Assembly (NCBI GenBank): GCA_947628235.1
Contig: CANQZC010000008.1
Span: forward strand, 2,273-66,272
Reading direction: 5' to 3'
DNA from: an uncultured Bacilli bacterium
GTDB lineage: Bacteria > Bacillota_I > Bacilli_A > RF39 > UBA660
Length of the DNA stretch: 64,000 nt
The translations under genes were made by a program, and so were the position numbers. The notes under the pieces were generated by a model, which was given only the letters and a program-made list of their open reading frames with translations, made no database searches and was not told the origin of the DNA. Below, piece by piece: positions 2,525 to 64,000 of this stretch (positions within the stretch are counted from its first letter, which is position 1; each line of letters opens with the position of its first letter).

Positions 2525-3450
2525 AAGAATGTTATTTAGGAGTAGATATTGGTTCTATTTCTACGAAAGCAGTTGTGATAAATAGAAAGTATGAAATTTT
2601 ATCTTCCTGTTATATCGAGACAAAAGGAAATCCTATTCAGGCTGTAGAAGAAGCTTTATCCTCTCTTACGATTCCTTCTGGATATGAACTTTGTGGGATA
2701 GGAACGACTGGTTCTGCTCGAAAATTAATTGGCCTTTTACTAGATGCCTCCATCATCAAAAATGAGATTACAGCGCATGCGATAGGGACATTAACTTTCC
2801 ATCCTGAAGTGAAGACGATTTTAGAAATAGGTGGACAGGATTCTAAAGTAATTCTCCTTCAAAATCATATGATTCGAGACTATGCGATGAATACTTTATG
2901 TGCGGCAGGAACGGGTTCTTTTTTATCTAGTCAAGCGAAACGATTAGGACTAGATGTTACTTCTTTTGGAGAAATTGCTCTAACTAGTACACATCCTACC
3001 ACGATTGCTGCTAGATGTACTGTTTTTGCGGAATCAGATTTAGTTCATAAGACCCAACTTGGTTATCCCAAAGAAGATATTGTTGCTGGTCTTTGTAAAG
3101 CCGTTGTGTTAAACTATTTAAATAATGTTTGTAAAGGAAAAAAACTAGAAGAACCGATTATCTTTCAGGGAGGAGTTTCGAAAAATAAAGGGGTAGTTCA
3201 TTTCTTTCAAGAAGTTTTAGGAAAAGAAATTTTAGTAGATCCAAATGGACATTTGATGGGAGCGTTAGGGATGGCCATTTTAGCGAGCCGTCTTCCGAAG
3301 GAGAAAACCTATTCCTTAGATTTTCAAAAACTTTCTTTTCGCACGGTGGGGAAGGAATGTCAAGGATGTTCGAATCGCTGTGAATTAGTCCATATTTATA
3401 AAGAAGAAAAATTACTAGATGTTTGGGGAAGTAAATGTGGAAAATTTTAA
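2521..3450 (+). CDS. 2-hydroxyacyl-CoA dehydratase activator (HgdC/BcrAD-type ASKHA ATPase)
   Basis: GVDIGSISTK, EITAH, IGGQDSK, CAAGTGSFL, CTVFAES, GGVS-x-N; C-terminal CxxCxxxC. Confidence 0.9.
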   Translation: MKECYLGVDIGSISTKAVVINRKYEILSSCYIETKGNPIQAVEEALSSLTIPSGYELCGIGTTGSARKLIGLLLDASIIKNEITAHAIGTLTFHPEVKTILEIGGQDSKVILLQNHMIRDYAMNTLCAAGTGSFLSSQAKRLGLDVTSFGEIALTSTHPTTIAARCTVFAESDLVHKTQLGYPKEDIVAGLCKAVVLNYLNNVCKGKKLEEPIIFQGGVSKNKGVVHFFQEVLGKEILVDPNGHLMGALGMAILASRLPKEKTYSLDFQKLSFRTVGKECQGCSNRCELVHIYKEEKLLDVWGSKCGKF

Positions 3451-3541
3451 AATAGAAATTCTCTTTTTTCGAAAATTAGAAAATAGGATACTAAAACCTT
3501 AAAAACAGTAAGAAATCTTTTGGAATTCCTAAAAATTCTAT

Positions 3542-3570
3542 TTGACAAAAAATTCATTATAGTGTATAAA
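3542..3570 (+). promoter_or_regulatory. Sigma-A promoter of topA
   Basis: TTGACA (3542-3547), 17-bp spacer, TATAAA (3565-3570). Confidence 0.6.
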
Positions 3571-37647: not shown

Positions 37648-38886
37648 GTGAGAGTAAGAAAACTAGATAATACAGCAAAAATTTTTTCTTTAGACAGCAA
37701 AAAAAATAATAATCTTTATCGCATGACTGTCACTTTGACAGAACCTGTTGATCCCAGACTTTTAAAGAAGTCTGTTATTTTAGCGTTAGACTATTATCCT
37801 AGTTATAAAGTAAGAAAAAGTTTAGGGTTCTTTTGGAATGCTTTTAGCAAAAATGAAAGAAATCCTATCGTCGAACAAAAAACGATTCATCCAGGAAAAA
37901 AGATTTGGTTTCATCGTAGTAACGATTATCTTTTTAAAGTGACTTTTTTTGAAAACCAAATTAATTTAGATGTCATTCATGTTCTTACGGATGGTGGGGG
38001 AGCTTTTATCTTTTTAAAGGCAATTCTCTATTTTTATCTCAGTGAAAAATATCAGTTAAAAAATCCTATCTTAAAACAGATTCCTAAACTTTCTAGTGAA
38101 GATCCTTATCAGTCAATCGTAGATTTAGAAAAGAAAACAGCACCTTCTTCATCAAAGTCTTATTTGATTAAAAAAGAGACGGCTTTTCTTCATAATTTTA
38201 AAACGAAATATCAGATGAAAATTGCGGATTTAAAAAAGGTGTGTAAAAAGAAAAAAGTATCTATTACAGAATACTTAACAGCGCTTTATATTTTTTCTAT
38301 TTATCAAACCATTTATGATAAAAAGAAAAATCGTGATATTAAGATTACGATTCCTATCGATTTAAGAAAGTATTATCCGGAAGAAGTGTTTACTAACTTT
38401 TTTACTTGTATGGTCATTGAAGGAAAAATCTTAGAATGTGAAAAAGTGACTTTTAATAACCTTTTAAAAGAAGTGAAAAAACAATTTGAAGAGAGACTAA
38501 CCAAAGAACAAATTGATGCCTATGTAGCGCGTGATGTTCGTCTTGGCAATAATCTTGCTATTTCGTTTGTTCCTCTTGGCATTAAGAAATTATTTATGCG
38601 TTTTTTAGGTACTTATGTTAGTCAAAGTACGACTTCAACACTTTCTAATTTAGGACAAATTACTTTAGAAGAACCATTTTCTTCCTATGTAGAAGATATT
38701 CATACTTCCGTCAATCCAGGAAGAACGCAGAAGGTAAAGTGTACGATTACTTCTTATCAAGATAATTTAACGATTGTATTAAATTCTAATCTTGCTTGTC
38801 ACCAGATGGAACAGGAGTTTTATCGTCTTTTAAAGAAACAAATTAAGAATCTTTCTTTCGAAAGTGACATATTAAAAAACCAGTAA
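37648..38886 (+). CDS. CoA-dependent acyltransferase (alcohol acetyltransferase/condensation-like)
   Basis: LDNTAKIF, HVLTDG (HxxxDG), PIDLR, SNLG motifs. Confidence 0.8.
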   Translation: MRVRKLDNTAKIFSLDSKKNNNLYRMTVTLTEPVDPRLLKKSVILALDYYPSYKVRKSLGFFWNAFSKNERNPIVEQKTIHPGKKIWFHRSNDYLFKVTFFENQINLDVIHVLTDGGGAFIFLKAILYFYLSEKYQLKNPILKQIPKLSSEDPYQSIVDLEKKTAPSSSKSYLIKKETAFLHNFKTKYQMKIADLKKVCKKKKVSITEYLTALYIFSIYQTIYDKKKNRDIKITIPIDLRKYYPEEVFTNFFTCMVIEGKILECEKVTFNNLLKEVKKQFEERLTKEQIDAYVARDVRLGNNLAISFVPLGIKKLFMRFLGTYVSQSTTSTLSNLGQITLEEPFSSYVEDIHTSVNPGRTQKVKCTITSYQDNLTIVLNSNLACHQMEQEFYRLLKKQIKNLSFESDILKNQ

Positions 38887-38897
38887 TTACTGGTTTT
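38876..38897. terminator. Perfect 22-bp palindrome at abutting convergent stop codons; likely bidirectional terminator
   Basis: AAAACCAGTAA|TTACTGGTTTT with A-rich left and T-rich right flanks. Confidence 0.65.
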
Positions 38898-40050
38898 CTT
38901 TTTGTAACATTTTAACATAAGGTTTGCGGTTAATATAGTGTTGATAATCAGGACCTGTTCCTAAAGTCATAATAGGAACTCCTAATTCACTTTCTAACCA
39001 CGCTAAATATTCTTTCCGATATTTATCAAAATAAATTTTTCCATAGCCATTATAAACACCATGAATATTTTGATAATCACTATCTAATTGTTCAAAGAAA
39101 TTGAGATAAATTTCTGTTGGATGACATCGTAAGACCGTTCTTTTTAAGTGATTGATATCGATATCAAAAATTCTTCTTTTCTTTTTAGTAACCGTTGTAT
39201 ATTCTGTTAAATCAGGAGCAATATCACCATATTCTTCAATATCTTCTTCAGTAATGACGGTAGGATATTGTCCTAAATAAGCGCCTACATTAATCTGATT
39301 CCAAGAAAGTTCGATGGAATTTCCATAATTGCCACTAAAGATAGTAGAACCATCATAAATTTCATTACTGATTCGAATCGGAAAAGGGCGAATGACCATA
39401 ATGACTTCTTTTAAGTAAAAAGCAGAAATACCAGCATCCGCTAACATCTGTTCTACGCAGACTTCTCTAGAAGTCGTATGAGGATAGTGACCACTATGAT
39501 TCATATCTAAGTCATATCCTTGCGCTCCTTCTAGTAAGATTCTTTTCGCACTCTTTAAATAAGAATATAATTTTTGATAGTAGTCTGGATCGGCTTTGAT
39601 GCCTTTCCACTCTTTAAAAAACTTCGTTTCTGGACTTCTCATCATCTTTTCTGTTTGACAAGCACATCCTCCTTTAAAGGTAGACCCAGAAACAATCTCT
39701 TTCTTTTCTTTTTCAATATGTTTTGGTTGAATGATAGGAACGAGTGGGTGGACAATAATTTCTCTTCCTTCTAACAAATCTTTATTATTTTCATACTCCT
39801 CTTCTAAGACATCCATATCGATGACAGAACCGGGTCCAATAAAGAGTTGTGTATTCGGATTTACTGCCGAAACGGGAATATGACGAAATACTCTTTTTTT
39901 CCCATCTTTGACAAAGGTATGACCCGCATTTGGCATATTGTTGGTAATCGCTACTTCCACATTTTTTTGAAGAGCGAATTGACCAATTACTTTGCCTTTT
40001 CCACAACTTCCTGCTTGACCATCCACAATCGCATAAACATTTCTTCGCAT
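38887..40050 (-). CDS. Adenylosuccinate synthetase-family protein with PurZ-like signatures
   Basis: GSCGKGK, NMPNAGHT, GST, EGAQG, YPHTTSR, PIRI, TTVTKKKRR, LNF, GTGP; start ATG 40050 after a GGGGGA RBS (387 aa). Confidence 0.85.
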   Translation of the reverse strand: MRRNVYAIVDGQAGSCGKGKVIGQFALQKNVEVAITNNMPNAGHTFVKDGKKRVFRHIPVSAVNPNTQLFIGPGSVIDMDVLEEEYENNKDLLEGREIIVHPLVPIIQPKHIEKEKKEIVSGSTFKGGCACQTEKMMRSPETKFFKEWKGIKADPDYYQKLYSYLKSAKRILLEGAQGYDLDMNHSGHYPHTTSREVCVEQMLADAGISAFYLKEVIMVIRPFPIRISNEIYDGSTIFSGNYGNSIELSWNQINVGAYLGQYPTVITEEDIEEYGDIAPDLTEYTTVTKKKRRIFDIDINHLKRTVLRCHPTEIYLNFFEQLDSDYQNIHGVYNGYGKIYFDKYRKEYLAWLESELGVPIMTLGTGPDYQHYINRKPYVKMLQKENQ

Positions 40051-40074
40051 ATCTCTTCCCCCTAATGATTTCTT

Positions 40075-40103
40075 ATTATACAGGAAGTGAAGAAAAGAAA
40101 CAA
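40075..40103 (-). promoter_or_regulatory. Sigma-A promoter of the PurZ-like gene
   Basis: Minus strand TTGTTT-17 bp-TATAAT, about 25 bp upstream of ATG. Confidence 0.65.
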
Positions 40104-40180
40104 GAAAAAGTGTAAAGTAACGAAGAAGGGAGTGCAAAAATAAGAAAAGTATGTTATTCTTAAAGAAGAGTAGGTGAAAT

Positions 40181-40843: not shown

Positions 40844-43800
40844 ATGATGAAAAAGATAATGCAGAAACTATTATCTATGGTAATGATAATAGCTACATTA
40901 TTCTACAACTTTGCACCGATGGCAGTCATCGCTTTAGAGGAACTTGCTCCAGCCGAAAGAGAGCTTGTAACGATCTCTGAAAAAATGACTCCCAAAGGAA
41001 ACATGGAAGTGGAAGCTCAGTTAGTACTTCCCATCAGAAACCGTGAAGAGAATAATATCGTATTTAAGATAAAAGATTCTCAAGATAATGAGGCAACGAT
41101 TCTTTTAAATGAAATTACGGTAAAAGCTCAAGATGGTGTCTATGAGACAAAGATTGACTTGGGTGACCAAAAAAATATTCGTGTTGTGGCAACCAAAAGA
41201 GATAACAATGGTGGCTTACTCAGTGGTGTAGATTATGAGAATAACATCGTTTATTTAAGTATCAACCTTTATGAACTAAATAAAGGCACTTACACGATTG
41301 AATTTAGCGGAAAACATTTTGTTACTTATGAAGTGCCTGTCACATTAGATGACTTTTCTAAGAGAGTTAGTATCACGAATGAAGCTGGTATGTTTGAAAT
41401 TGGTGATATCAATGAAGATGGAAAAGTTGATGAAGCCGATAGTGAAATGATGCTAGAGGCAATCGAAACTGGAAAGGAAGAATACGACCTAAATTTAGAT
41501 GGCATTGTGGATATTGCTGACTTAAACTATATTACCGCGATGATTACTGGAACTCCAAAGAAAGCAAAAATTGAAAATACTAGTGCCATTATCAATCCAG
41601 AGACAATTTCTTTTGATGTTCAAGATGTCAAAGTAGAAGGATCTTTAGGAAATCTATTCCAAGACGATGGAGTAGTTACTTTAGAACCAGCTAATGGCGA
41701 AAAGGTAACGGAAGAAAATCCTATTCAACTGGCAATGGATTTAGGAGATAATAAAGAAGAAGCTATCGAGATGAGCGAAATTCGTATCGGTATCGGGGCA
41801 GAAAATATTCCAACGAAGATGACACTTCTTGTCGAAACAGCTTCTGGAAAAGTAGAAGAATATACTTATTCTGCGAAAGAAGGAGTAGAGCAAGTTCATC
41901 TATTTACAGAAGATGCTAGTGAAGGAGTTATTTCCATTTCTTTAGGAAATCAAGTAGCTGTTAAGAAAGTAACAATCAAAGTAACAGAGACTTCTGGAAA
42001 TAATTTAGCGGAAATTGCCAAAGTAGAATTCCTAAATAATGTAAAAGTAAAAACACAAATGCCAGAAGGATTCTATACCCCAAAAGGAATTAAAGTAGAT
42101 ACTTCGGTAAGTGAACAGTTAACCATTTCATTTGACCCTGTAGACAATGTTACTGGTTATGAAATTTCGATTGTGGGACCAAAAATGAACCGTATTTTCC
42201 AAACGACATTTACAAGTTTCACTATTGAAGATTTAAAAAACTATAAGAGTTATATTATTAAAGTACAATCTGCTAACCAAGAATGGCGTAGTGGATGGAG
42301 TGAGGAGATAGAGGCAATTCCTCAAGCAACAAGAAAACCTCCCGCACCAGATATGGTAAAAGGAGATGCTACTTTCGGTGGTATTAATTTTAGTTGGAAA
42401 GATATGGATGATACGACTTCTTACAACTTATACTATCGTATGGTAGGAGAAGAAAAATATACTAAGATTGCTGATTTAAAGGGAACTAGTTACTCTTTAA
42501 AGGGATTAAATCCAGGAGAACAATATGAAGCTTATATCACTGGTAATAATGTGTTAGGTGAAGGAGATAAATCTGCCGTTGTTACTGTGAAAGTATTAGA
42601 AGTTGGTGCTGTCATTGTTCCTCAATATGGCATTATTAATGACTATAATGGAACGACGAATAGAACCAATCATATTGTAGGAGTTACGACTTCTAAAGGA
42701 ACTTATTCGAATGGAACAGAAGAGACACAAGATGCTTGGTCTTTAGTCGATGATGACTTTAGAACGACTTGGTCTTATCAAGACTGGACGATGGGAACTT
42801 ATAATAATATTAGTGGATTCCCACTCTTTGAGTTAGATGAAGCTTATGAAATGGATGAATTTGTTCTTACCGTTCCTGATAACTATCCAAACCAATATAA
42901 AACAGGTGGATATGTAAACAATAATGATGCTCTTATCTATTATTGGGAAGAAGGACCTGAGTATACGGCAGCAACACAAAAGAAAGTACCAGCCGTAGTT
43001 ACAAGAAAACAAGATGTAAATGGTCGTTATTACTATGTTGTAAAACTAGAAGACCCAATTACCGCAAAAGCTGTTCAATTCGGTTTAACGGTAGTATCTA
43101 ATAAACAATTAATTACTCTTGGCGATGTAAAGTTCTATCACTACGATTCTTTAGTGGATGATGTTAGTGCTTTATTTAAAGATGACCTTAGAGTAGAACT
43201 TGCGGATGGTGTTGACCAAAAGAGAATTACAGAATTAAGAGAACGCGCTAATACGATGAAAAATGGTGAATATAGTCCATATCGTGAAAGTGTTTTAAAT
43301 GATTTAGCGTATGCTGAAAAAATCTTAAATGATGAAAAATTAAATGATGTTATCGTTTTAAATCCAAATATTTCTAATTCTTATAATGGACATTTAGGAT
43401 TTGCGATGACAATTAATGACTATCAACCATTAGGAATTTCTGTTAGACCTGGAGATCAAATTACCATCTATGCAGGTTCAACTGGAAAAATTAATGCTGA
43501 AGTCATTGTTACACAATACTATGCTGAAGCAAGTGCATGGAAAAAATCTGTAAAGACATTACAGAAGGGACAAAATATTATTGATATCCCAGAAGTAACG
43601 ACAACTAGTTCTTTAAGAGAAAGTGGAGGAAGCGTTTATATTCGTTATACATCTACTCCAGATCCTAAGAATCCAATTAAGATTCGTGTGAGTGGTGGTA
43701 CGAAAATACCAATGCTAGATACTTCTTTATTAACGAACGATACAGAGAAGAAAGCAGCTATTAAAGAGTATATTGAAACCCTTGATCAATATGTTGCTGC

Positions 43801-46051
43801 GCTTCCAGAAATGTATTCTGAGGAAGGAAAAGAATTCAGTCCACAAAAGAGTGCATTAGGAGCAACAGAAATTGTTACAGAACATGGATTATGGTCTGTC
43901 TCTGCTGTAGCTGTTAAAAACGGATTAGATTCTGGAACTTCTTCTCTAGAGGATAGAGTGAATCGTCTTTTCGAATCTACAGAAGCCTTTGATGAAATGA
44001 TGGAAATGTTCTATCGTCATAAAGGACTTTCCAAAGATGCCGAAGAAAAGACAAATGAAATGCCAAAAGCGAGAATTAATATTCGTTATATGAAGATGTT
44101 TGATGGTGCTTTCATGTATGCTGGTGGATACCATATCGGTATTGAATATGGTTCTATTGCTGGACTTGTTCAAGCACACCGTAATACGGAAGATGCAACA
44201 GGATACTTTGGATGGGGAATTTCTCACGAAGTAGGACATCAAATTAATCAATCTTCTTTAGTACATGCAGAAGTTACGAACAACATCTATGCGATGTTAG
44301 CGCAAACAAGTAATGATAAAGATATTTCTCGTTTAGAGGGTAGTGGAATCTATGAGAAAATCTATGAGAAAGTTACTTCTCATACGATTGGAAAACCACA
44401 AAATGTATTTGTTACATTAGGTATGTATTGGCAACTTCATTTAGCGTATGATAATACCAATACCTTTAGTGATACAGATTCTATTTATGCGAGAATCAAT
44501 CAACTTACTAGAACTTACAAAAATGAAAAGAATTATAGTAAAGATGACTTATTAGTTCTTTTCGCTAGTCAGGCTGCGAAGAAGGATTTAACAGAGTTCT
44601 TTGCGACTTGGGGAATTCAAGCAAGTCCTGAAGTACAAGAAGAGATTGCTAATCTAAATTTAGAAAAAGAAGAAAAAGCAATCTACTACTTAAATGATGA
44701 AGCAAGAAAATATCGTTTATCTGGAAAGTCAGGAATGGCTAGCGATACGAAAGCAACTGCGCAAATAGTAGATACCAATAGTAAAGATAAACGAGTTACT
44801 TTAACATTTGGAGTAACCAAAGATAGTGATAAGATTTTAGGATATGAAATTCTTCGTAATGGCGTATCTATTGGATTTGTTCCAGGAAATACTCATGAGT
44901 TTACAGATAATGTAGGTGCTGAAAATAATCGTGCTTATGTTTATAGTGTAGTTGCTTATGACTATCTATTAAATGAAACAGACCCAATCGCTCTAGAGGA
45001 AATTAAGATTAGTCATGATGGAAGCATTGTCAAAGATGCCTTCACTGTAGAATCTAATGTGAAAGAACCAAAAGAGATTGTAGACTACGAAGATGAAGAT
45101 TTAGATTATTCTGCCCTACATGTAAATCGTCTTGTCGATGGAAATGTAGAAGTTGGATTTAATGGTACAGAAAAGATTACTACTTTAAATCAAACCAATG
45201 ATAATCCAAAATTAGTAACCGATACTGGAAATGCTTATGTAATTATCAATTTAAATGCTTCTATGTCTGTTAGTGGTATTAAATACCGTGCTTTAGTAGA
45301 AGATGGTACTTTAAATGCCAATACTGTTAAGAAATATAATGTCTATGTAAGTTCAGATAAAGAAACATGGACTCTTGCTCGTACTGGAGAATTTAAAGTA
45401 ACTGCCGAAAACCCAGAAGAAACGATTTACTTTATGGGACAAGGTACAACTAGTCAAACTCAATTATGGACTTATCATGATGTTGCTTATGTTAAGATTG
45501 AATCTGTAGGTAACAAGAATGGATTCTCAGGTGCGGAAATTGATATTATTGCTCCTCCAGGAGATAATGTTGATATCGATGAGACAGCATCTCATACCAA
45601 AGCCTTTGGAAAATTAACAACAGATTACTGTTATTTAAGAGAGGGATGTGATCCTTCTAAGAAAGACGAAAACGGTGATGTCATTGGACAAATTAAAGCC
45701 GGATCTGTTATTATTCAAGGTACTTATCGTGGAAATCCAAGTTTCAATGTAGTTACTATTGGAAATCCAAATGATGAGAAAAAGATTTATGATGGATATC
45801 AAATCATCTTTGCGGAACTAAATGATGATGATACCGTTTATGATGTAGCGAGTGGTATATGGATTTATGTTATGACAGAAGAAGAATATAATACAATGTT
45901 ATCTTCTACAGACAGTATTCGTGCTTACTTATATCGTGTTAATGATGCAGAAACAAATGAAGGACAAAGAATTACAAGTACTTCTAAATCTATTACAAAT
46001 TTACCTAAGTACGAAGATTTAAATTCTGTAGTTCTTGATAATAAACAATAG
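40844..46051 (+). CDS. Secreted M60-family (enhancin-like) metallopeptidase with dockerin, FN3 and CBM32/discoidin-like modules
   Basis: Signal peptide; dockerin GDINEDGKVD..D / DLNLDGIVD.ADL; FN3 repeats; FMYAG, WGISHEVGH..EVTNN gluzincin motif. Confidence 0.9.
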   Translation: MMKKIMQKLLSMVMIIATLFYNFAPMAVIALEELAPAERELVTISEKMTPKGNMEVEAQLVLPIRNREENNIVFKIKDSQDNEATILLNEITVKAQDGVYETKIDLGDQKNIRVVATKRDNNGGLLSGVDYENNIVYLSINLYELNKGTYTIEFSGKHFVTYEVPVTLDDFSKRVSITNEAGMFEIGDINEDGKVDEADSEMMLEAIETGKEEYDLNLDGIVDIADLNYITAMITGTPKKAKIENTSAIINPETISFDVQDVKVEGSLGNLFQDDGVVTLEPANGEKVTEENPIQLAMDLGDNKEEAIEMSEIRIGIGAENIPTKMTLLVETASGKVEEYTYSAKEGVEQVHLFTEDASEGVISISLGNQVAVKKVTIKVTETSGNNLAEIAKVEFLNNVKVKTQMPEGFYTPKGIKVDTSVSEQLTISFDPVDNVTGYEISIVGPKMNRIFQTTFTSFTIEDLKNYKSYIIKVQSANQEWRSGWSEEIEAIPQATRKPPAPDMVKGDATFGGINFSWKDMDDTTSYNLYYRMVGEEKYTKIADLKGTSYSLKGLNPGEQYEAYITGNNVLGEGDKSAVVTVKVLEVGAVIVPQYGIINDYNGTTNRTNHIVGVTTSKGTYSNGTEETQDAWSLVDDDFRTTWSYQDWTMGTYNNISGFPLFELDEAYEMDEFVLTVPDNYPNQYKTGGYVNNNDALIYYWEEGPEYTAATQKKVPAVVTRKQDVNGRYYYVVKLEDPITAKAVQFGLTVVSNKQLITLGDVKFYHYDSLVDDVSALFKDDLRVELADGVDQKRITELRERANTMKNGEYSPYRESVLNDLAYAEKILNDEKLNDVIVLNPNISNSYNGHLGFAMTINDYQPLGISVRPGDQITIYAGSTGKINAEVIVTQYYAEASAWKKSVKTLQKGQNIIDIPEVTTTSSLRESGGSVYIRYTSTPDPKNPIKIRVSGGTKIPMLDTSLLTNDTEKKAAIKEYIETLDQYVAALPEMYSEEGKEFSPQKSALGATEIVTEHGLWSVSAVAVKNGLDSGTSSLEDRVNRLFESTEAFDEMMEMFYRHKGLSKDAEEKTNEMPKARINIRYMKMFDGAFMYAGGYHIGIEYGSIAGLVQAHRNTEDATGYFGWGISHEVGHQINQSSLVHAEVTNNIYAMLAQTSNDKDISRLEGSGIYEKIYEKVTSHTIGKPQNVFVTLGMYWQLHLAYDNTNTFSDTDSIYARINQLTRTYKNEKNYSKDDLLVLFASQAAKKDLTEFFATWGIQASPEVQEEIANLNLEKEEKAIYYLNDEARKYRLSGKSGMASDTKATAQIVDTNSKDKRVTLTFGVTKDSDKILGYEILRNGVSIGFVPGNTHEFTDNVGAENNRAYVYSVVAYDYLLNETDPIALEEIKISHDGSIVKDAFTVESNVKEPKEIVDYEDEDLDYSALHVNRLVDGNVEVGFNGTEKITTLNQTNDNPKLVTDTGNAYVIINLNASMSVSGIKYRALVEDGTLNANTVKKYNVYVSSDKETWTLARTGEFKVTAENPEETIYFMGQGTTSQTQLWTYHDVAYVKIESVGNKNGFSGAEIDIIAPPGDNVDIDETASHTKAFGKLTTDYCYLREGCDPSKKDENGDVIGQIKAGSVIIQGTYRGNPSFNVVTIGNPNDEKKIYDGYQIIFAELNDDDTVYDVASGIWIYVMTEEEYNTMLSSTDSIRAYLYRVNDAETNEGQRITSTSKSITNLPKYEDLNSVVLDNKQ

Positions 46052-47048: not shown

Positions 47049-48734
47049 TTAAAATCCGAATGGATCTTCTATTGGGTCAGTATCTGTATCTGTTGTCATC
47101 ATAGAATTTAAAATCTGTGAAATATATTGGAATAATTTAGATTGTTCTAAGTTAACTAAAGCAGTTTGAAGTTTTTGTTCATCAGCAGGAGTAATATCTG
47201 TTGCAAGAGCTTTACTTACATCAATATCTGCAATTTCAGCACCTATCTCTTCTGTATAAGTAAGATGAATTCCAAGGTCGATTCCACTCATATCTATTGT
47301 AAAATCAAAAGTACCTTCCGTTTTCTTATCATTTACCTTCTTCGTTGTAGATTTTAAAGTACCAGTTATAGAGATACCTTCCACAGAAACCGTATAATCC
47401 ATATCTATTTCATCTTCAGTAAATTTCTTAACTTTTAAAGAAACAGGAGTTTCTAATTTCATATCTTGATTAACATCTAACTTAATATCTACATTCGTTA
47501 CATCTTTTTCTTCGGTTGCGACAACTTCCACGAAAGTTACATTTCCTAATTTGTAAGCAATATCTGTAACATCATCATAATGATAGTAAGTAATAGTTGA
47601 TCCTTCAGAATCAATGATTTCAACACCTACCGTTTTTGTTTTTAATCCTGTTGTCGTATAAAGAACAAAACTTCCTTTTCCTACTTCAGAGAAATCTTGA
47701 TTAGCAGCTTCCTCTAAAGATTTTTTAACTTCGTCTTCAGACATTCCAGAAATTTTTGCAAATGTTTTTGTGAATTGACTACTATTTTTTAATTCTTTAC
47801 TAAGAGAACTAACAAGATTTTTAACGGTATTAGAATTGATTTCATAAGTAATTGCGTTAACTTTTACTTTCTTTCCGTTAATCGTAATTTCTTTTTTCTC
47901 TTTCTTCATATTTTTAGAATCTAAAGAATTGATAAGAGCGTCTTTGAATTCTCTTACAATAGTATCAATTTCTTCTGTACTTGGCATAGATAAGTCATCG
48001 AATTCAGACATATCGAATTCAACGGTTTCCCCTTCAGCAATATCATAGATATTAGAAAGAAGGGTATCACTTTGTAAATAAGTATGATTATTCTTTAAGA
48101 AAGCAGTAGCGTCTAGTAATTTCGTATTATTTTCTAGATAAGCACCACCAATTTCTAATTTTTGGTTTTTTAAATCCATTCCATAAGAAAATTGAAATTT
48201 ACTATCTTTTAATGGTTCTAACATAGATCCTGTAAAAGATAATTCTCCAGTAATCTTATAGCTTTCTTCAAGCATTGCTTTTAGACTTTCAGAACCTTTA
48301 TAATTCTTTAAAGATTCACTAAAGTCAGAATATAGTTCATTGATAGAACTCTTTACAATTTTTGTTGGATTGTTAGAGAGTTTAAAGTAAACTCCTACAA
48401 CAACTGCGATAATCGCAACAACAATAAGTGAACAAATGGCAATGATTTTTCCTTTGCCTTTTTTAGGAGCTTTGTTCATTTCTCCGTTTGTATCCACATT
48501 TGGTTGTGGAGTGGTAGGAACTGTAGTGACTGGTGTTACTGGGGGTACTGGTGTTACTGGGGGTACTGGCGTTACCGGAGTAACAGGACTCTCAGTAGCT
48601 GGTACTTCAGGAGTAACAGGAGTTTCCGTCGTTGGAGTTTCTGGTGTAACTGGTACTTCTGGTGTAACAGGAGTCTCTGGTGTTGTTCCTACTTCAGGTG
48701 TCACATTTTCACCTGGCGTATGATTTTCGTTCAT
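47049..48734 (-). CDS. Single-pass membrane protein with Pro/Val/Thr-rich N-terminus and large extracellular domain
   Basis: PVTP(E/V) repeats, KKGKGK then TM, beta-rich C-terminus. Confidence 0.75.
   Translation of the reverse strand: MNENHTPGENVTPEVGTTPETPVTPEVPVTPETPTTETPVTPEVPATESPVTPVTPVPPVTPVPPVTPVTTVPTTPQPNVDTNGEMNKAPKKGKGKIIAICSLIVVAIIAVVVGVYFKLSNNPTKIVKSSINELYSDFSESLKNYKGSESLKAMLEESYKITGELSFTGSMLEPLKDSKFQFSYGMDLKNQKLEIGGAYLENNTKLLDATAFLKNNHTYLQSDTLLSNIYDIAEGETVEFDMSEFDDLSMPSTEEIDTIVREFKDALINSLDSKNMKKEKKEITINGKKVKVNAITYEINSNTVKNLVSSLSKELKNSSQFTKTFAKISGMSEDEVKKSLEEAANQDFSEVGKGSFVLYTTTGLKTKTVGVEIIDSEGSTITYYHYDDVTDIAYKLGNVTFVEVVATEEKDVTNVDIKLDVNQDMKLETPVSLKVKKFTEDEIDMDYTVSVEGISITGTLKSTTKKVNDKKTEGTFDFTIDMSGIDLGIHLTYTEEIGAEIADIDVSKALATDITPADEQKLQTALVNLEQSKLFQYISQILNSMMTTDTDTDPIEDPFGF
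48505..48718 (-). repeat. PVTP/PETP coding repeats
   Basis: Near-exact 18-bp units such as ACTGGTGTTACTGGGGGT on the + strand. Confidence 0.8.
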
Positions 48735-57628: not shown

Positions 57629-58114
57629 TTATTCACTCTCCATTTGTTTTTGAATAAAACTCTTTGTTTCATCGAAAGGAATGTCTAGAGCAATCGCTAA
57701 TTCCTGATAGAGAAAATCTTCTGCTTTTTCAAAGTATTTAAAATCCTTCTCACTACTTTTCTTTTTGGCTTTTTCTCTTGCTTCGTTTCTTAAATAAGTG
57801 GTTTTAATAAGTTTTACTAAATCTTCTTGATTTCCATAATAAAGAAGATCTTTATAAGTTGATTCCATCGTTCTTTCTTCTACTTTTAAAGGAGGAATCT
57901 TTTTCATTTTGTGAATGAGTTCCATCGCTTCTTCCTTTGTCATAAGGGATCTTAAAAAGCCAAATTCATTATCCGAAGGAACATCAATTACTAAAGATTC
58001 ATCTTTAATAGGAATTAAAGTATAGTAGTCTTTATCTACCTTAGAAGAATGCTTTTTATCAACAATCTTACATACTTCATTTTTATACATAATATAGTTT
58101 TCTTTATCACCCAT
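57629..58114 (-). CDS. CarD-family transcriptional regulator
   Basis: VC.I.D, YY.L.P, I.VP, LR.LM.KEEA, AE..LY.ELA.AL. Confidence 0.85.
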   Translation of the reverse strand: MGDKENYIMYKNEVCKIVDKKHSSKVDKDYYTLIPIKDESLVIDVPSDNEFGFLRSLMTKEEAMELIHKMKKIPPLKVEERTMESTYKDLLYYGNQEDLVKLIKTTYLRNEAREKAKKKSSEKDFKYFEKAEDFLYQELAIALDIPFDETKSFIQKQMESE

Positions 58115-58284
58115 ATTACCACTCCTTTTTTCTTGATTTCTACTTTTATTTTAGCAAAAAAAATTTTTTTTCGTAAGTTTTTTCTTTTCTAAAAAGGGAA
58201 GAAATCCTTCTAAAAAGTATGATAGCGAGGAAAAATGTGGCATAATAATTAATAAGATAGATATTGTAATAGGAGGAGTAAAGG

Positions 58285-58755
58285 ATGAAAAAATTTGGTA
58301 TGCTATTGTTAAGCTTGTTAACGGTTTTCTTTTTAGCAGGATGTGGATCTACGCAAGAAAAAGAACAAAAATTAGTTTGTACGATGAACCAAAACGAAGA
58401 TGGAATGAATGTAAAGCAAGTCATTTCTATGAATTTTAAAAACGATAAGTTAAATCATATGACTATGGAAATTACTACTAGAATTACGGATTCAGATGTT
58501 CAGAAAAATTGGGAACAATTTAAAAAGATTATGGACGAGGACAATCAAGAGTTTGATAAAGATGGAATTCGTTTCACTGTTTCTGTAAATGATCAAAATT
58601 ATGAATATACGACTTCTTTGGATATTGATGTTGAAAATACAACGGAAGAAGCTTTAAAGAAGCAGGGATTTGAAGGATTAAAAGATGATAGAAGTACTCT
58701 TGAAGAAAATAAAAAAGAAGCCGAACAAGATGGTGCTATCTGCGAAATAAAATAA
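58285..58755 (+). CDS. Lipoprotein (YehR/DUF1307-like)
   Basis: Lipobox LAGC; LVCT and terminal G..C disulfide pattern. Confidence 0.7.
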   Translation: MKKFGMLLLSLLTVFFLAGCGSTQEKEQKLVCTMNQNEDGMNVKQVISMNFKNDKLNHMTMEITTRITDSDVQKNWEQFKKIMDEDNQEFDKDGIRFTVSVNDQNYEYTTSLDIDVENTTEEALKKQGFEGLKDDRSTLEENKKEAEQDGAICEIK

Positions 58756-58775
58756 GTAAAATGAAAGTATTACTC

Positions 58776-58830
58776 TTTATGGAAGCAAACGATATAAAGT
58801 TTGCTTTTTCTTTGGTATAATAGTAGTGAA
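58776..58830 (+). repeat. Intergenic hairpin plus extended -10 element, copy 1
   Basis: TTTATGGAAGCAAAC-N8-GTTTGCTTTTT..TGGTATAATAGT. Confidence 0.7.
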
Positions 58831-58853
58831 ATAGAGATATTGAGGTAGATATT

Positions 58854-59348
58854 ATGAAGAAAGAAGAAGTCTATGATTTTATCAAAAGTAAGAATATCTG
58901 GTATGAAATTACAGAACATCAAGCGGTTTATAACATGCAAGAGTTAAAAAAGATAAACTTACCATATCAAGAAGATGATGGAAAAAATCTCTTCGTTAGA
59001 GATAATAAAAAAAGAAACTATTATTTAATTACTGTAAAAGGCGATAAAAGACTAGATTTAAAGGCTTTTAGTGATACTTATCATACGCGTCGTTTAAGCT
59101 TTGCAAGTGAAGCAGATTTACTTCATATTTTAAATTTAAAACCAGGATCAGTAACCCCTTTAGGATTATTAAATGATAAAGATTTACAAGTGACTTTTTA
59201 TTTAGATGAAGACTTTTTAAAGGAAAATGGCATTATAGGTGTTCATCCTAATGATAATACGGCAACGGTTTGGTTAAAAACTCTAGATTTGATAGCTCTA
59301 ATTCAAGAACATGGAAATCTAGTAAAGATTGTAAAAATAGAGAAATAG
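58854..59348 (+). CDS. YbaK/ProX (PrdX) aminoacyl-tRNA editing protein
   Basis: KNLFVRD, LSFASE, PGSVTPLGL, HPNDNTAT. Confidence 0.92.
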   Translation: MKKEEVYDFIKSKNIWYEITEHQAVYNMQELKKINLPYQEDDGKNLFVRDNKKRNYYLITVKGDKRLDLKAFSDTYHTRRLSFASEADLLHILNLKPGSVTPLGLLNDKDLQVTFYLDEDFLKENGIIGVHPNDNTATVWLKTLDLIALIQEHGNLVKIVKIEK

Positions 59349-59446
59349 TAGGCTTCTAGAGAAAATATTTTAGTTCGTAACTTAGTTGTAACATTTCTTC
59401 CTTTATAATGAAGTTGTGTCAGAAAATATTATAAAGGAGATTTCTT

Positions 59447-60796
59447 ATGAAGAAAAAAATATCTATCATCTTATATGGTATTGCTAGTTTCCTTGGACTT
59501 ATCTATTGGATTGGAGAGATAACTCCTAATTTTAATTTATCAGAAACGGGCAGATTATTTCTATTGTGTGGTAGTTGTTTCTTCCTTTACTTGGGAGGCC
59601 TATTACTTTCAAAAATAAAAGCAAATAATAAACCTATGAAAATTAACTTATGGATTTTCTTTGCACTTTATGTTTTGCTTCTTGTGACCCTAACTTTATT
59701 TGATTCTATGTGGGGAAGAAATGGTTTTTCCTGGATAAATTGGTTTCATGATGATTTTCTTTCCTTTGTCAAACATTCCATGAACTTAATTCCATTTAAA
59801 ACAATTATGGAATTCGCTAAAGAATTTAACAGTATGTATAGCAATCGTACTATCCTTTTAAATTTATTTGGAAACTTTATTGCGCTTATGCCGATGGCTT
59901 TCTTTTTACCACTATTATTTCCAAAACAAAATAAATTTAAAAACTTTTTTTGGACATCCTTCTTTATTGTACTTGGTATCGAATTAACACAGTTATTAAC
60001 CGCATCCGGTAGATTTGATATCGATGATATCATCTTAAATGTTACGGGCGCTACTGTGATGTATTTTATTTTAAAAATCAAAGAGGTAGATCATCTAATC
60101 AAGAATATCTTTCTATTAGAAAACAATCCCATTTCTAAGAAAAGTTATTTGGTAATGACAATGTCTATATTACTAGTGATTTTAGGGACTATTTTATTAG
60201 TGAAATTTAGAAGCAAATTATATAGGGATAATTTGGATCAATATAACAAAATTCATAACCCTAGTATTGCCATTCTAGATGAATCCGAAAATGTTTGTGA
60301 TCCAGGATTCGACTTATTTTATGAGGATGATTTGTATCGTTACTATTTTCCTTGCCGGAAAAGTGATAATGTATACGCTATTATCAATCAAGAAGAAAAG
60401 TATTTGGTAAAAGACTTCATGAAGAATGAAACTTATCATTATTCGATTGATAGGATGTTATCGGTATTAGATTTTTATGAAGTAAAATATGTAAAAGAAA
60501 ATAAGTATCCATATATTCTCTTATCAATTAAAGTTCCAACAGGGGATAATGGTAGTTTTTCAAGTCCTAACATCGATATTAAAGTAGAAAAGGAAAATCT
60601 CTTAGATACTAGATATGACTATGAAAATGATTTTGAAAATGCTACATTTCAGTATAAAGTACATTTGATTCCAAAAGTATCAGGTACTACGAAGATAGAA
60701 GTATCATTTACAGATCATAATCATAATCTATTAGGAAATTATCAGTACACTATTCAAATAGATGAAAAGTTAAATCTAGAATATCAAGAATCATGA
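59447..60796 (+). CDS. VanZ-domain membrane protein with extracellular C-terminal domain
   Basis: NLIPFKTI, NLFGN...MP, IELTQ, G.FDIDDIILN..GA. Confidence 0.88.
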   Translation: MKKKISIILYGIASFLGLIYWIGEITPNFNLSETGRLFLLCGSCFFLYLGGLLLSKIKANNKPMKINLWIFFALYVLLLVTLTLFDSMWGRNGFSWINWFHDDFLSFVKHSMNLIPFKTIMEFAKEFNSMYSNRTILLNLFGNFIALMPMAFFLPLLFPKQNKFKNFFWTSFFIVLGIELTQLLTASGRFDIDDIILNVTGATVMYFILKIKEVDHLIKNIFLLENNPISKKSYLVMTMSILLVILGTILLVKFRSKLYRDNLDQYNKIHNPSIAILDESENVCDPGFDLFYEDDLYRYYFPCRKSDNVYAIINQEEKYLVKDFMKNETYHYSIDRMLSVLDFYEVKYVKENKYPYILLSIKVPTGDNGSFSSPNIDIKVEKENLLDTRYDYENDFENATFQYKVHLIPKVSGTTKIEVSFTDHNHNLLGNYQYTIQIDEKLNLEYQES

Positions 60797-60812
60797 AATT
60801 AAGGAGAGATTC

Positions 60813-61103
60813 ATGAAAGAAAAAGTATATGAATTTTTAAGAACGATTCCAAAAGGAAAGGTAGTCACTTATGGTCAAATAGCAGAATATCTAGGAGATA
60901 AACATCTTGCGCGAGTAGTTGGAAATATTCTTCATCACAATCCTGATGAATATCAATATCCTTGCTATAAAGTAGTAGATGGAAAAGGGAATCTATCAAG
61001 AAATTTTGCTTTTGGAGGAATAGAGAGGCAAAAAGAAAGATTAGAAGAAGAAGGAATTGTGGTTAATCATTATAAAGTTGATTTAGATAAATATCGTTAT
61101 TAG
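60813..61103 (+). CDS. MGMT/ATL-family alkylguanine DNA repair protein
   Basis: IPKGKVVTYGQIA, ARVVG, PCYKVV, L..EG. Confidence 0.9.
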   Translation: MKEKVYEFLRTIPKGKVVTYGQIAEYLGDKHLARVVGNILHHNPDEYQYPCYKVVDGKGNLSRNFAFGGIERQKERLEEEGIVVNHYKVDLDKYRY

Positions 61104-61110
61104 AATTCAA

Positions 61111-61162
61111 TTTATAGAAGCAAACCCTATGTGAGGTTTGCTTTTTATGGTATAATAGTGAA
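61111..61162 (+). repeat. Intergenic hairpin plus extended -10 element, copy 2
   Basis: TTTATAGAAGCAAAC-N10-GTTTGCTTTTTATGGTATAATAGT. Confidence 0.7.
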
Positions 61163-61195
61163 CAGAAAATAATGATTTGAAGGAGTGTGGATACG

Positions 61196-61531
61196 ATGAA
61201 TAATAGAGAGTATTTAGGAAAAATATTGAATATCGAAATCGATCGAGAATATGGTAGTAAACATCCTAAACATGGTTTTATTTATCCAGTCAATTATGGG
61301 TATGTTCCAAATACTGTCAGTGGCGATGGCGAAGAACTAGATTGTTATTTATTGGGGGTTTTTGAACCTGTAAAATCATTTCGAGGAAAATGTATTGCTA
61401 TTGTTCATAGAACGAATGATAATGATGATAAATTAATCATAGTACCTGAAAATAAAGAGTATACCGACGATGCGATTAATGCCTTAATTGAATTTCAAGA
61501 ACAATACTTTGAACATATCATTATAAGATAA
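61196..61531 (+). CDS. Short family I-like inorganic diphosphatase
   Basis: YPVNYGYVP, GDGEELD, DDKLI. Confidence 0.85.
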   Translation: MNNREYLGKILNIEIDREYGSKHPKHGFIYPVNYGYVPNTVSGDGEELDCYLLGVFEPVKSFRGKCIAIVHRTNDNDDKLIIVPENKEYTDDAINALIEFQEQYFEHIIIR

Positions 61532-61554
61532 ATGGTAAGTTATATAAGTAGGAG

Positions 61555-62229
61555 ATGAGATTTGTGATGGATTATTTTCATAAAATATGCAAGGATAAAG
61601 AAATAATAGAAATATACGAAAGAATTCACAAATATGAAGATGCGGAAGGTGGTTATGCATATCATGATTATAACCATGTTAATAATGTTGCGAATTATTG
61701 CGAAAAAATATTAAGGTCATTAAAATATGATGATGATTTTATCAGTGAAGCAAAAATAGCGGCTATTTTACATGATACAGGTTGTACTGAAGGAAAGGAA
61801 AATCATGCATATAGAAGTTATGAATTTGCTAAGAAATATATAGAAACAAATCATATTCCTTTAAAAAATAAAGAATTGGTATTAGATGCCATCAAAAATC
61901 ATAGTGAAGGATTTATTACCGATAACATAATTCAACTTGTTATTATATTGGCAGATAAGATAGATATCAAGAAATCTAGAATTAGTGAAAGTGGTAAACA
62001 AGTAATAGGAAATAGACAATATCAATATATAAATGATATTCAGTTTGAAGTAAAAAACAATAATTTTTATATCAATTTTATATGTGATGAAAAAATTAAT
62101 TTAGAGGAATTAAACAATTATTATTTTACTAAAAAAGTTTTTAAAGCAATTCAATCTTTTTCTAATAAAATGAACTTATCTCCTAAAGTGTTTATGAATG
62201 GTAAATCATGGGAAGAATTTTATAAATAG
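61555..62229 (+). CDS. HD-domain phosphohydrolase
   Basis: H...H, AILHDTG, NH, KNH, ADKID. Confidence 0.85.
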   Translation: MRFVMDYFHKICKDKEIIEIYERIHKYEDAEGGYAYHDYNHVNNVANYCEKILRSLKYDDDFISEAKIAAILHDTGCTEGKENHAYRSYEFAKKYIETNHIPLKNKELVLDAIKNHSEGFITDNIIQLVIILADKIDIKKSRISESGKQVIGNRQYQYINDIQFEVKNNNFYINFICDEKINLEELNNYYFTKKVFKAIQSFSNKMNLSPKVFMNGKSWEEFYK

Positions 62230-62271
62230 CAATTTGTTAAACTTTCCATAATTGGATGAGAGGAGAAAATT

Positions 62272-62538
62272 ATGAGTAATAAAGAGACAGTAGGAAAAAT
62301 CATTAAAGTTAAAAAATTATGGTGGTTGAAAATCAATAAAAAACCTATTAGAACAACATCTTTAGACGGCGCTATCTTCCCATCATCATTACAAGTTCAA
62401 TATCGTGTTAGTGGTAAGGAACATATTGGAAAGAAAATAGTTACTTGGGATAATAGTTTTACGCAAGTAGGACAAGAGGTTATTGTCGTGTATAATGAAG
62501 ATAAACCACAAAAAATATTAAGTTTAAGAAAAAAGTAA
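62272..62538 (+). CDS. Small hypothetical protein (DUF3592-like beta fold)
   Basis: GKI..V, V.Y.V.GK, G..V.V.Y...P. Confidence 0.6.
   Translation: MSNKETVGKIIKVKKLWWLKINKKPIRTTSLDGAIFPSSLQVQYRVSGKEHIGKKIVTWDNSFTQVGQEVIVVYNEDKPQKILSLRKK
62497..62538 (+). repeat. Direct repeat, left copy (gene 3' end)
   Basis: GAAGATAAACCACAAAAAATAT identical to 63616-63637, then imperfect to the stop codon. Confidence 0.85.
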
Positions 62539-62784
62539 GTTACAATTTGTGTCAGTAAGATAAATAATAATTTGTATAATTGAACACTTTGAAAAATTGT
62601 CCTTTTTTGAACTATTTATATATTGATTTTTCGATGAATCTATATTTGATATAAACCTTTTCAACTTTTTATTTATAAATTTATTGGATTACGAACATTT
62701 GTATGATATAATGTCGTTATTAGAAAGGCTGAAAATAGAAGAAAAAATTTGTAAATATACATCAAAATTGCAAAAGGAGGAAAA

Positions 62785-63612
62785 ATGTTGGAATTAAAAG
62801 TAGATAATCAAATTATTAATTATGTTAAAATAAATGATGAAGATTACATTTCCATAACAGATATGCTTAGATCGAAAGATGGAGATTTTTTTGTCTCTGA
62901 TTGGCTTAGAAATAGAAATACTATTGAATTTTTAGGAATTTGGGAAGAACTTCATAATCCTAATTTTAATTATGGCGAATTCGCCATAATTAAAAGTCAA
63001 GCAGGCTTAAATAGTTACAAGATTAGTGTTAAAGATTGGGTTAGTAAAACGAATGCGATAGGAATAATATCAAAAGTTGGAAGATATGGTGGAACCTATG
63101 CCCATAAAGATATTGCTTTTGAATTTGGTATGTGGATTAGTCCAAAATTTAAATTATTGTTAATTAAAGAGTTCGAAAGATTAAAGCAAGAGGAACAAAA
63201 GCAATTAGGATGGAGTGCCAAAAGAGAATTATCGAAAATCAATTATAAAATTCATACCGAAGCAATTAAAAATAACTTAATACCAAAAAAATTAAACAAA
63301 GATCAAATAAATTTTGTTTATGCTGAAGAAGCGGATGTATTAAACATGGCGCTGTTTGGAATGACCGCAAAGGAATGGAGACAAAAAAACACTAATTTAA
63401 ATGGTAATATTAGAGATTATGCTTCCATTGATGAACTGATATGCTTAGCCAATTTAGAAAATTTAAATTCAGTATTTATTAATTATGGATTGTCACAAGC
63501 TGAAAGACTTGAGGAATTGAATAAAATTGCTATTTCACAAATAAAAGTATTATCAGAAAATAATATGAAATTTTTAAATAGTACTGAAACAAAGCATATT
63601 AGAAATAGCTAA
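62785..63612 (+). CDS. KilA-N domain DNA-binding protein
   Basis: DYISITD, WLRN..TIEFLG.WE..HNP.F, GRYGGTYAH.DIAFEF..WISP.F. Confidence 0.93.
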   Translation: MLELKVDNQIINYVKINDEDYISITDMLRSKDGDFFVSDWLRNRNTIEFLGIWEELHNPNFNYGEFAIIKSQAGLNSYKISVKDWVSKTNAIGIISKVGRYGGTYAHKDIAFEFGMWISPKFKLLLIKEFERLKQEEQKQLGWSAKRELSKINYKIHTEAIKNNLIPKKLNKDQINFVYAEEADVLNMALFGMTAKEWRQKNTNLNGNIRDYASIDELICLANLENLNSVFINYGLSQAERLEELNKIAISQIKVLSENNMKFLNSTETKHIRNS

Positions 63613-63615
63613 TAA

Positions 63616-63657
63616 GAAGATAAACCACAAAAAATATCATCTTTAAGAAGAAAATAA
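63616..63657 (+). repeat. Direct repeat, right copy (displaced gene 3' end)
   Basis: Reads EDKPQKISSLRRK* versus EDKPQKILSLRKK* in the left copy. Confidence 0.85.
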
Positions 63658-63693
63658 TTAGAAAGTAGAACTAATGAAAAGGAGAAATAGATT

Positions 63694-64000
63694 ATGAAAG
63701 TATTATTGGTAAATGGCGGACCACATAGAGAAGGATGCGTTTATACTGCTCTTACTGAGGTGGCAAAAGAATTAAATCAGGAAGGAATTGAAACGGAAAT
63801 ATTTTGGATAGGGGTAAAACCTATATCTGGATGTATTGCATGTCATAAATGTTCAGAACTTGGAAAATGTGTATTTTCTGATGTGGTAAATGAATTTGCT
63901 TTAAAGGCAAAGAGTGCGGATGGTTTTATCTTTGGAACACCTGTTCATTATGCTTCAGCATCAGGAGCCATGACTTCCTTCATGGATAGACTTTTTTATT
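63694..64000 (+). CDS. Iron-sulfur flavoprotein / NADPH-dependent FMN reductase family, 3'-truncated (not in the ORF track)
   Basis: MKVLLVNGGPHREG...GCIACHKC....KC...GTPVHY; AAGGAG RBS. Confidence 0.9.
   Translation, partial: MKVLLVNGGPHREGCVYTALTEVAKELNQEGIETEIFWIGVKPISGCIACHKCSELGKCVFSDVVNEFALKAKSADGFIFGTPVHYASASGAMTSFMDRLFY

Follow-up and report, generated by a model that had tools for sequence, protein, structure and literature searches.

To our knowledge, PurZ has been treated as an enzyme of phages only, whose product is finished by the PurB of the host. The subject of this report is a PurZ-like homologue of adenylosuccinate synthetase that is encoded in a cellular chromosome, on the minus strand at positions 38887-40050 of a 64-kb stretch (the window) of contig CANQZC010000008.1 from an uncultured Bacilli bacterium. 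The genome that holds the window is referred to as G000, and any genome with a gene of the same family as a holder. In the sections of PMC12884076 used here, the PurZ group contains 147 phage and four archaeal sequences, and at most two prokaryotic sequences were sampled per phylum, so that a cellular PurZ-like family would be missed by this sampling. The sections of PMC8342488 used here state that some PurZ records with bacterial names look viral, and those of bioRxiv 10.1101/2025.10.22.683976 mention no cellular PurZ. A full-text literature search, with the supplements, the paper on the PurZ0 structure and two Science papers of 2021 on PurZ outside its scope, returned no description of a bacterial PurZ-like family, and the role of this gene has probably not yet been described. 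Judged from its sequences, the family is a branch of PurZ that came from phages and now belongs to cells, in many cases coupled to a Ppx/GppA-type enzyme; its hosts are bacteria that lack the complete known pathway. Surveys for genomes containing Z (2-aminoadenine) that use PurZ homology alone would count such bacterial genes as false positives.

The phage enzymes with which the window protein has to be compared are the PurZ of vibriophage phiVC8 (also DgsS; 6FM1 and 6TNH) and that of S-2L (7ODX). It has in common with them the short adenylosuccinate-synthetase fold, a serine in place of the catalytic aspartate, the TTVTKK.RR loop, an Asn-Phe pair in the pocket of the donor base, and an inserted stretch that follows the P-I-R-(V/I) strand. 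The serine is S15 in the P-loop GSCGKG and aligns to S23 of S-2L PurZ, the tip of the aspartate loop (T285-T288, TTVT) aligns to T273-T276, and this loop is conserved together with R292/R293 as in phiVC8 PurZ. In the donor pocket, which comprises N305, F306 and Q308 in S-2L, N317 and F318 are retained and position 320 is Glu. The region of the S-2L R-V loop likewise carries an insertion, with Ile227 for the Val and Glu at the equivalent of R244; in PurZ, a loop insertion after R-V disfavors ribonucleotides. A preference of the window protein for deoxyribose would be likely. Thirty S-2L residues are named in the part of PMC8342488 used here as touching dGMP, dATP or aspartate, and 24 of these are identical in the window protein; at the six of them that discriminate PurZ from PurA, it is PurZ-like at five (S15, S123, T285, N317, F318). 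With such an active site, the protein would be expected to join aspartate to a guanine (deoxy)nucleotide as PurZ does. The initial annotation had claimed a PurZ-type and not a PurA-type gene in a cellular chromosome, and this assignment is supported by synteny in a second species, by purifying selection, by a nested position among phage sequences and by the lack of datZ, mazZ and dpoZ, as set out below. The five motifs that it quoted are all found in the translation (GSCGKG, NMPNAGHT, PIRI, TTVTKKKRR and LNFFE), and the top-scoring family model is the NCBIfam PurZ model NF038379 (205 bits).

PurA, both the canonical enzyme (E. coli, 1ADE) and the archaeal one (P. horikoshii, 5K7X), shares the homologous fold and the catalytic His, Gln and Arg, whereas Asp13, TRVG, GTxTGR.RR and the Asp-containing GTP motif of PurA are all missing from the window protein. 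The P. horikoshii enzyme, as aligned by HMMER, is canonical at these sites (GDEGKG, TRVG, GTVTGRRRR, TMLDKYD). The window protein is matched by PF00709 with 115 bits and by PHROG 1211 with E 1e-60, and it falls far short of the cut-offs of the archaeal PurA model NF003295 (173.7 bits versus 368) and of the purA model TIGR00184 (122.7 versus 395.55). Its best relative in the PDB is phiVC8 PurZ 6FM1 (E 4e-41, 144 bits), followed by P. horikoshii PurA (E 3e-32, 115 bits) and S-2L PurZ (E 3e-31), then by PurZ0 (E 4e-26, 95 bits) and E. coli PurA (E 5e-11, 45 bits). Actinophage PurZ0 (7VF6) and the short "archaeal-like" homologues with GSEGKG also have the P-loop Ser, the short fold and the TTVT loop, but they form a separate basal group and carry Asp at the donor-specifying position, like PurA.

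The phylogenetic placement was obtained from a FastTree tree of 163 rows and a quick IQ-TREE tree of 79 rows (LG+C20+F+G4, with support from the Shimodaira-Hasegawa-like approximate likelihood-ratio test, SH-aLRT). The root is formed by bacterial PurA only and the rows include no Asp-type archaeal PurA, for which the comparison rests on hidden Markov model scores, PDB scores and motifs. A homologue search with protein P0138 as query had returned 115 Ser-type sequences among 117. Both trees agree, and the cellular family is monophyletic (support 99) within a 30-row clade (99) that contains seven phage sequences from IMG/VR; the group of the Bacillus phage vB_BpsS-140 "PurA" is next (90). The enclosing clade of 65 rows (98) also holds the PurZ of S-2L, of phiVC8-like vibriophages and of an Acinetobacter phage, the window protein standing outside the 10-row subclade of characterized PurZ. 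Outside these 65 rows lie PurZ0, the "archaeal-like" sequences with GSEGKG or GGEGKG, and canonical bacterial PurA (100). The phylogeny that the initial annotation had asked for thus sets the window protein in the PurZ clade, apart from PurZ0 and canonical bacterial PurA, in trees whose rows hold no archaeal PurA of the Asp type. The IMG/VR proteins nearest in the tree share the GSCGKGK P-loop and TTVTKK.RR; nine of ten are 34-39% identical to the window protein, and the tenth is 28% identical with a GDCGKGK P-loop. Unlike the window gene, they are found in phage replication and nucleotide modules, among neighbors such as an exonuclease, a helicase, thymidylate synthase and a dNMP kinase, and their loci contain no Ppx/GppA-like partner. 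A transfer from phage to cell would be the simplest reading of this topology.

The Ser-type radiation around the query is, to judge by its P-loops, large and mostly uncharacterized. Among the 131 representatives nearest to the query (320-500 residues; P0126-P0267), the two P-loop residues at this site read ST in 56, SE in 42, SC in 17, SS in 11 and GE in one, with four unreadable. Short Ser-type homologues with GSEGKG and LNF.D (P0388-P0504) also appear under the names of cultured bacteria, including Cohnella (C. algarum), Metabacillus halosaccharovorans, Paenibacillus, Clostridium tertium, Tissierella, Anabaena and Nitrospira tepida, some of them on multi-megabase contigs, and cellular Ser-type homologues may be commoner than this one family.

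The window gene differs from phage PurZ in several respects and is a property of the cell. At most 35% identity was found to any match in the phage databases, and the gene lies in a chromosome without datZ, mazZ or dpoZ. A Pfam search of 51 open reading frames of the window yielded topoisomerase I, a glycerol channel, P-type ATPases, RsmB, Ham1, ABC transporters and an M60 peptidase, and it gave no phage structural or integrase genes near the PurZ-like gene, in agreement with the claim that it has no phage neighbor. It had also been called the only minus-strand gene for many kb, which is correct in that the other minus-strand frames of at least 100 residues before position 47049 each overlap longer plus-strand genes. 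The G+C content of the gene, 0.317 against about 0.32-0.34 in the flanks, is native. A second species of the same genus (G002) holds a copy that is 78% identical and is flanked on one side by the same four genes, encoding a 412-residue protein, a metallo-beta-lactamase (MBL) hydrolase, a P-type ATPase and ArsR, so that the position of the gene, whose synteny in relatives was to be checked, is common to both genomes. The ratio of nonsynonymous to synonymous substitution rates (dN/dS) is 0.10-0.15 against four orthologues, a rough figure as dS is saturated, and by this measure the gene is under purifying selection. The proposal that a cell has domesticated a phage PurZ is therefore supported: the family is nested among phage sequences, it is chromosomal, and its dN/dS is about 0.1.

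The family is found well beyond this genome. A word-indexed search gave 1790 proteins at E <= 1e-10, divided between a short form (about 385 residues) and a long form (about 455 residues), on contigs of up to 355 kb; in an exhaustive search of representatives at 50% identity, only about seven clusters exceeded 44% identity. When one genome was taken per species, a relative was encoded in 158 stretches, and the 80 best among these are all metagenome-assembled genomes, mostly titled uncultured Bacilli, Bacillales, Tenericutes/Mycoplasmatota or Firmicutes; 11 carry the unconfirmed label Muribaculaceae; one holder is a circular chromosome of 1.52 Mb. The gene is present in six of 19 other genomes of the genus and, in a sample of the order, in 10 of 151 genomes and eight of 86 genera, and thus its distribution is patchy. 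One copy of the order sample (G067) is broken by two stop codons. Sixteen family members with identities down to 48% have 58 invariant columns, and family-specific patterns found no member of at least 50% identity on the viral contigs of IMG/VR. In a subgroup (P0060, P0063) the P-loop Asp is restored (GDCGKG), and the TTVT tip and the insertion after PIRI are lost.

When the open reading frames of 80 related loci and the window were clustered, the sole conserved neighbor was a protein of about 298 residues. Tallied over the 74 loci with more than 1000 nt upstream, this partner is the immediate upstream gene, in the same orientation, in 37 and is found 1.1 kb upstream in one; one further locus has only a distant paralogue, and 35 do not contain it. 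It passes PF02541 (Ppx-GppA) narrowly, with 32 bits against a cut-off of 27, and scores 47.6 against a cut-off of 307 for TIGR03706. Its structure model has a predicted local distance difference test score (pLDDT) of 93, and the best Foldseek match is the A. aeolicus Ppx/GppA 1T6C (E 4e-20), with the two-domain ASKHA fold; the best matches also include H. pylori PPX/GppA, whose structure was determined with ppGpp and GTP analogues, and NTPDases come next. Among 15 close members the partner is 78-89% identical and thereby better conserved than the synthetase. Read from these loci, the ancestral arrangement is an operon of two genes, the synthetase and the Ppx/GppA-like gene. The initial annotation had described the window gene as lone, which does not stand in view of the 37 loci, the more so as G000 itself keeps a decayed remnant of the true partner (C17:10178-10360; L117 ~3170-3560). 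This remnant is marked by stop codons, changes of frame and large deletions within it, and it adjoins a tRNA-like stretch read from a translated open reading frame. A 28%-identical paralogue is also encoded in G000 (C6). Other holders without an adjacent partner have it 18 kb away (G043), have a paralogue only (G042) or have none (G044). The partner also occurs without the synthetase in G007 and beside a canonical PurA in G024. In the G007 locus (L119 2922-7111; G007:C3), it is followed by Ogt-like (O6-methylguanine-DNA methyltransferase) and Tag-like (3-methyladenine glycosylase I) frames and preceded by a small MazG-like frame, all named from motifs only.

In Z-phages the gene beside purZ encodes MazZ or DUF550, and according to the part of PMC8342488 used here the MazZ-type role is the supply of (d)GMP from (d)GTP. 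By analogy, the operon partner would deliver (d)GMP from (d)GTP as well, but its fold is that of Ppx/GppA and not of MazG, and only the remnant is left in G000. It could represent a new (d)GMP supplier of Ppx/GppA fold beside MazZ, DUF550 and DutZ.

As to the metabolic setting, G000 comprises 1.61 Mb in 38 contigs and is 94.1% complete, and neither purB (TIGR00928) nor any Lyase_1 protein (PF00206) was found in it. The same holds for all 19 holder genomes examined (no match in six holders of the relatives sample, in five reached through loci, including the closed chromosome, and in eight further holders of the order sample), while the controls matched in 14 of 14 reference genomes. In the order sample a purB match occurs in six of 151 genomes, none of them a holder, although at such frequencies the non-overlap alone shows no exclusion. 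PurB also serves de novo purine synthesis, and the holders are therefore purine auxotrophs. G000 has no second PF00709 protein and hence no purA, so that neither of the canonical genes for which the initial annotation had suggested a check was found; IMPDH and GMP reductase were not found either, and adenosine/adenine deaminase and two anaerobic ribonucleotide reductases are present. A phmmer comparison of S-2L DatZ and MazZ and of phiVC8-like PolA with the six-frame open reading frames of G000 gave only the host PolA and one weak HD-domain match, which agrees with the claimed absence of datZ, mazZ and dpoZ and extends it from the window to the genome. No phage-borne lyase was seen in five related IMG/VR records, three of which are at least 90% complete. 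Two genomes of the same PurB-less family encode a canonical PurA (G009, C10, L029 7430-8695, PF00709 554 bits; G024, C47, L030 352-1617, 569 bits) and have no purB match, so that their genes would imply adenylosuccinate synthesis without a known lyase. A frame of 276 residues upstream of purA in G009 was considered as the lyase and rejected, since neither G000 nor the surroundings of the family genes contain a match to it.

From these data we derive the following reading, which we judge to have an even chance of being right: the window protein would be a domesticated member of the phage PurZ radiation that forms its own family in small-genome gut Bacilli and acts as a PurZ-type synthetase yielding an N6-succino-2-aminopurine nucleotide. 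A guanine (deoxy)nucleoside monophosphate would be phosphorylated by the synthetase at its 6-oxo group, with ATP or possibly GTP, and would then be attacked by aspartate. The ancestral partner of Ppx/GppA fold would have supplied the monophosphate from (d)GTP or (d)GDP, the job of MazZ or DUF550 in Z-phages. As the cells have no adenylosuccinate lyase, the product would persist as N6-succino-2-amino-(deoxy)adenylate, and Z would never be formed. Such a module could drain off or divert guanine nucleotides as an accessory function, or it could make a succinylated nucleotide that has its own role, in antiviral pool manipulation or as a guanylate overflow; in G000, where the partner has decayed, the synthetase would work alone. 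Manipulation of the dGTP pool against viruses and overflow for salvaged guanylate are at this stage ideas. A conserved cellular family inside the PurZ radiation whose hosts cannot finish the pathway raises the possibility that the chemistry has been repurposed or that a missing enzyme exists.

A number of points weigh against this reading. The window protein does not reach the NF038379 cut-off of 300 bits. Its AlphaFold2 model (mean pLDDT 85.6) is matched alike by archaeal PurA 5K7X and PurZ 6TNH in the fold search, so that the fold cannot separate the two. Six of the S-2L contact residues are changed, namely Y21 to Ala, Y203 to His, C204 to Thr, V241 to Ile, R244 to Glu and Q308 to Glu. At position 320, the last of these (Q308/N297 in the phage enzymes), characterized PurZ has Gln or Asn, G002 and the long form have Gln, and PurA and PurZ0 have Asp; the Glu of the window protein makes its phosphate donor uncertain. 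There is, moreover, an extra, family-specific insertion just before the aspartate loop, as well as a C-terminal extension relative to phage PurZ. Several holders (G000, G002, G042, G044) manage without the partner, and a dead-end product is odd for a gene under purifying selection. With respect to an antiviral role, PADLOC gave no match for the window protein, the long form or the partner. Applied to 150 of 341 non-redundant neighbor proteins, with no background control, it returned 17 matches at E <= 1e-10 and no complete system; these are generic-domain models (HTH, ABC ATPase, UvrD helicase, TatD, HD, adenosine deaminase), and no clear defense island was seen around the family genes among these proteins.

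One alternative, which we consider unlikely, is that the protein is a working substitute of PurA, which converts IMP and aspartate to adenylosuccinate in purine salvage and tolerates the P-loop Ser. In favor of this, it is the sole PF00709 protein in a genome where purine interconversion is otherwise missing, for want of IMPDH and GMP reductase, and its fold fits archaeal PurA as well as PurZ. However, without PurB its product cannot reach AMP, and the replacement purine-interconversion enzyme that the initial annotation had considered fails on this point unless an unrecognized lyase exists. A gene found in only 10 of 151 genomes of the order does not belong to core metabolism, and the scores stay far under the TIGR00184 and NF003295 cut-offs. 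In the sections of PMC12884076 used here, Asp13 is 99% conserved in PurA, while Ser occupies this site in 147 of 147 phage PurZ and PurZ0 sequences.

That the family makes Z nucleotides or Z-DNA, with an unrecognized lyase outside Lyase_1 finishing the pathway, is in our view unlikely as well. The PurZ-type residues are conserved, and the canonical PurA of the PurB-less G009 and G024 would be of little use without some cleavage of adenylosuccinate. Against this, G000 encodes no Lyase_1 protein at all, has no DatZ or MazZ homologue and only a housekeeping PolA, and the frame beside the G009 purA is without counterpart there or near family members; in the portion of PMC13128860 (2026) used here, natural dZ-DNA is known from phages only. 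The earlier suggestion that Z nucleotides are made is not supported for the known route, which needs adenylosuccinate lyase to cleave the succinylated intermediate, an enzyme found in none of the 19 holders examined.

We would also give little credence to a new chemistry, in which another acceptor (GMP, XMP or a damaged purine nucleotide) or another nucleophile (e.g. direct amination) makes a lyase unnecessary. It would suit the family-specific insertion beside the aspartate loop, the subgroup with a restored P-loop Asp and a lost TTVT tip, and the DNA-repair genes that recur nearby (uracil-DNA glycosylase superfamily in nine loci, UvdE in five), to which the Ogt-like and Tag-like frames after the G007 partner may be added on a motif reading. 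The neighbor counts, however, come from related genomes and are not independent, and TTVTKK.RR with R292/R293 is conserved as in phiVC8 PurZ. A functionless relic of an old prophage, for which the phage origin of the family, its patchy distribution, the decayed partner in G000 and the interrupted copy in G067 could be cited, is highly improbable given an intact frame with dN/dS of about 0.1 and native base composition, a position conserved between G000 and G002, and the 58 invariant columns in 16 members.

Compared with the domesticated synthetase as formulated above, we put forward more tentatively, and as a somewhat doubtful proposition, that a PurB-less gut lineage took over a PurZ from a phage, in many cases along with a phosphohydrolase of Ppx/GppA type, and has either a succinylated 2-aminopurine nucleotide as end product or Z by way of an unrecognized lyase. 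If true, the first outcome would add a new member to the natural nucleotides of cells, one that acts against viruses or in regulation, and the second would be the first cell-owned Z metabolism.

Concerning expression, the full open frame of the PurZ-like gene extends over 38887-40137 on the minus strand, and the likely start is the ATG at 40050, from which the open reading frame list and the translation give an intact frame of 387 residues, the coordinates including the stop codon. The Shine-Dalgarno-like sequence AGGGGGAAGAG at 40053-40063 (minus strand), directly 5' of the ATG, reads as a strong ribosome-binding site. The initial annotation had also assigned a sigma-A promoter of its own to the gene, and this is only partly sustained: the promoter-like site at 40075-40103 (minus strand) has a perfect -10 TATAAT (40075-40080) and a 17-nt spacer, but its weak -35 TTGTTT (40098-40103) agrees with the consensus at three of six positions, and the site is absent from the hits of a consensus promoter scan. 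The scan counted eight promoter-like sites in the region, where shuffled sequences gave 7.6 on average, which represents no enrichment; a sigma-A-type promoter is plausible from its letters. A terminator-like hairpin of nine pairs with T-runs on both sides, with no strand assigned, is found at 38876-38897, where the stop codons of this gene and of the convergent gene for the 412-residue protein (37648-38886) face each other (one in the hairpin scan, shuffle mean 0.7). A run search for the PurZ-like gene listed eight DNA runs from gut metagenomes of two studies and no RNA run.

The convergent 412-residue neighbor has no Pfam or NCBIfam match and contains an HxxxDG-like motif; it is kept beside the PurZ-like gene in G002, and relatives of it lie two genes upstream of the module in two other loci (L086, L087). 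Elsewhere in the window, positions 40844-46051 encode a secreted-looking protein of 1735 residues with Peptidase_M60 (enhancin-like) and fibronectin type III domains, which fits a gut lifestyle associated with host mucus. A protein of 1520 residues with two FtsK/SpoIIIE stretches is encoded at 8972-13534, and a copy with 37% identity is located near the long-form gene in G011 (L028). Towards the end of the window (58000-64000), in what may be a separate island, the G+C content falls to 0.27-0.29; encoded there are a truncated-looking inorganic pyrophosphatase frame (61187-61531), a protein with an HD domain (61555-62229) and one with KilA-N (62785-63612).

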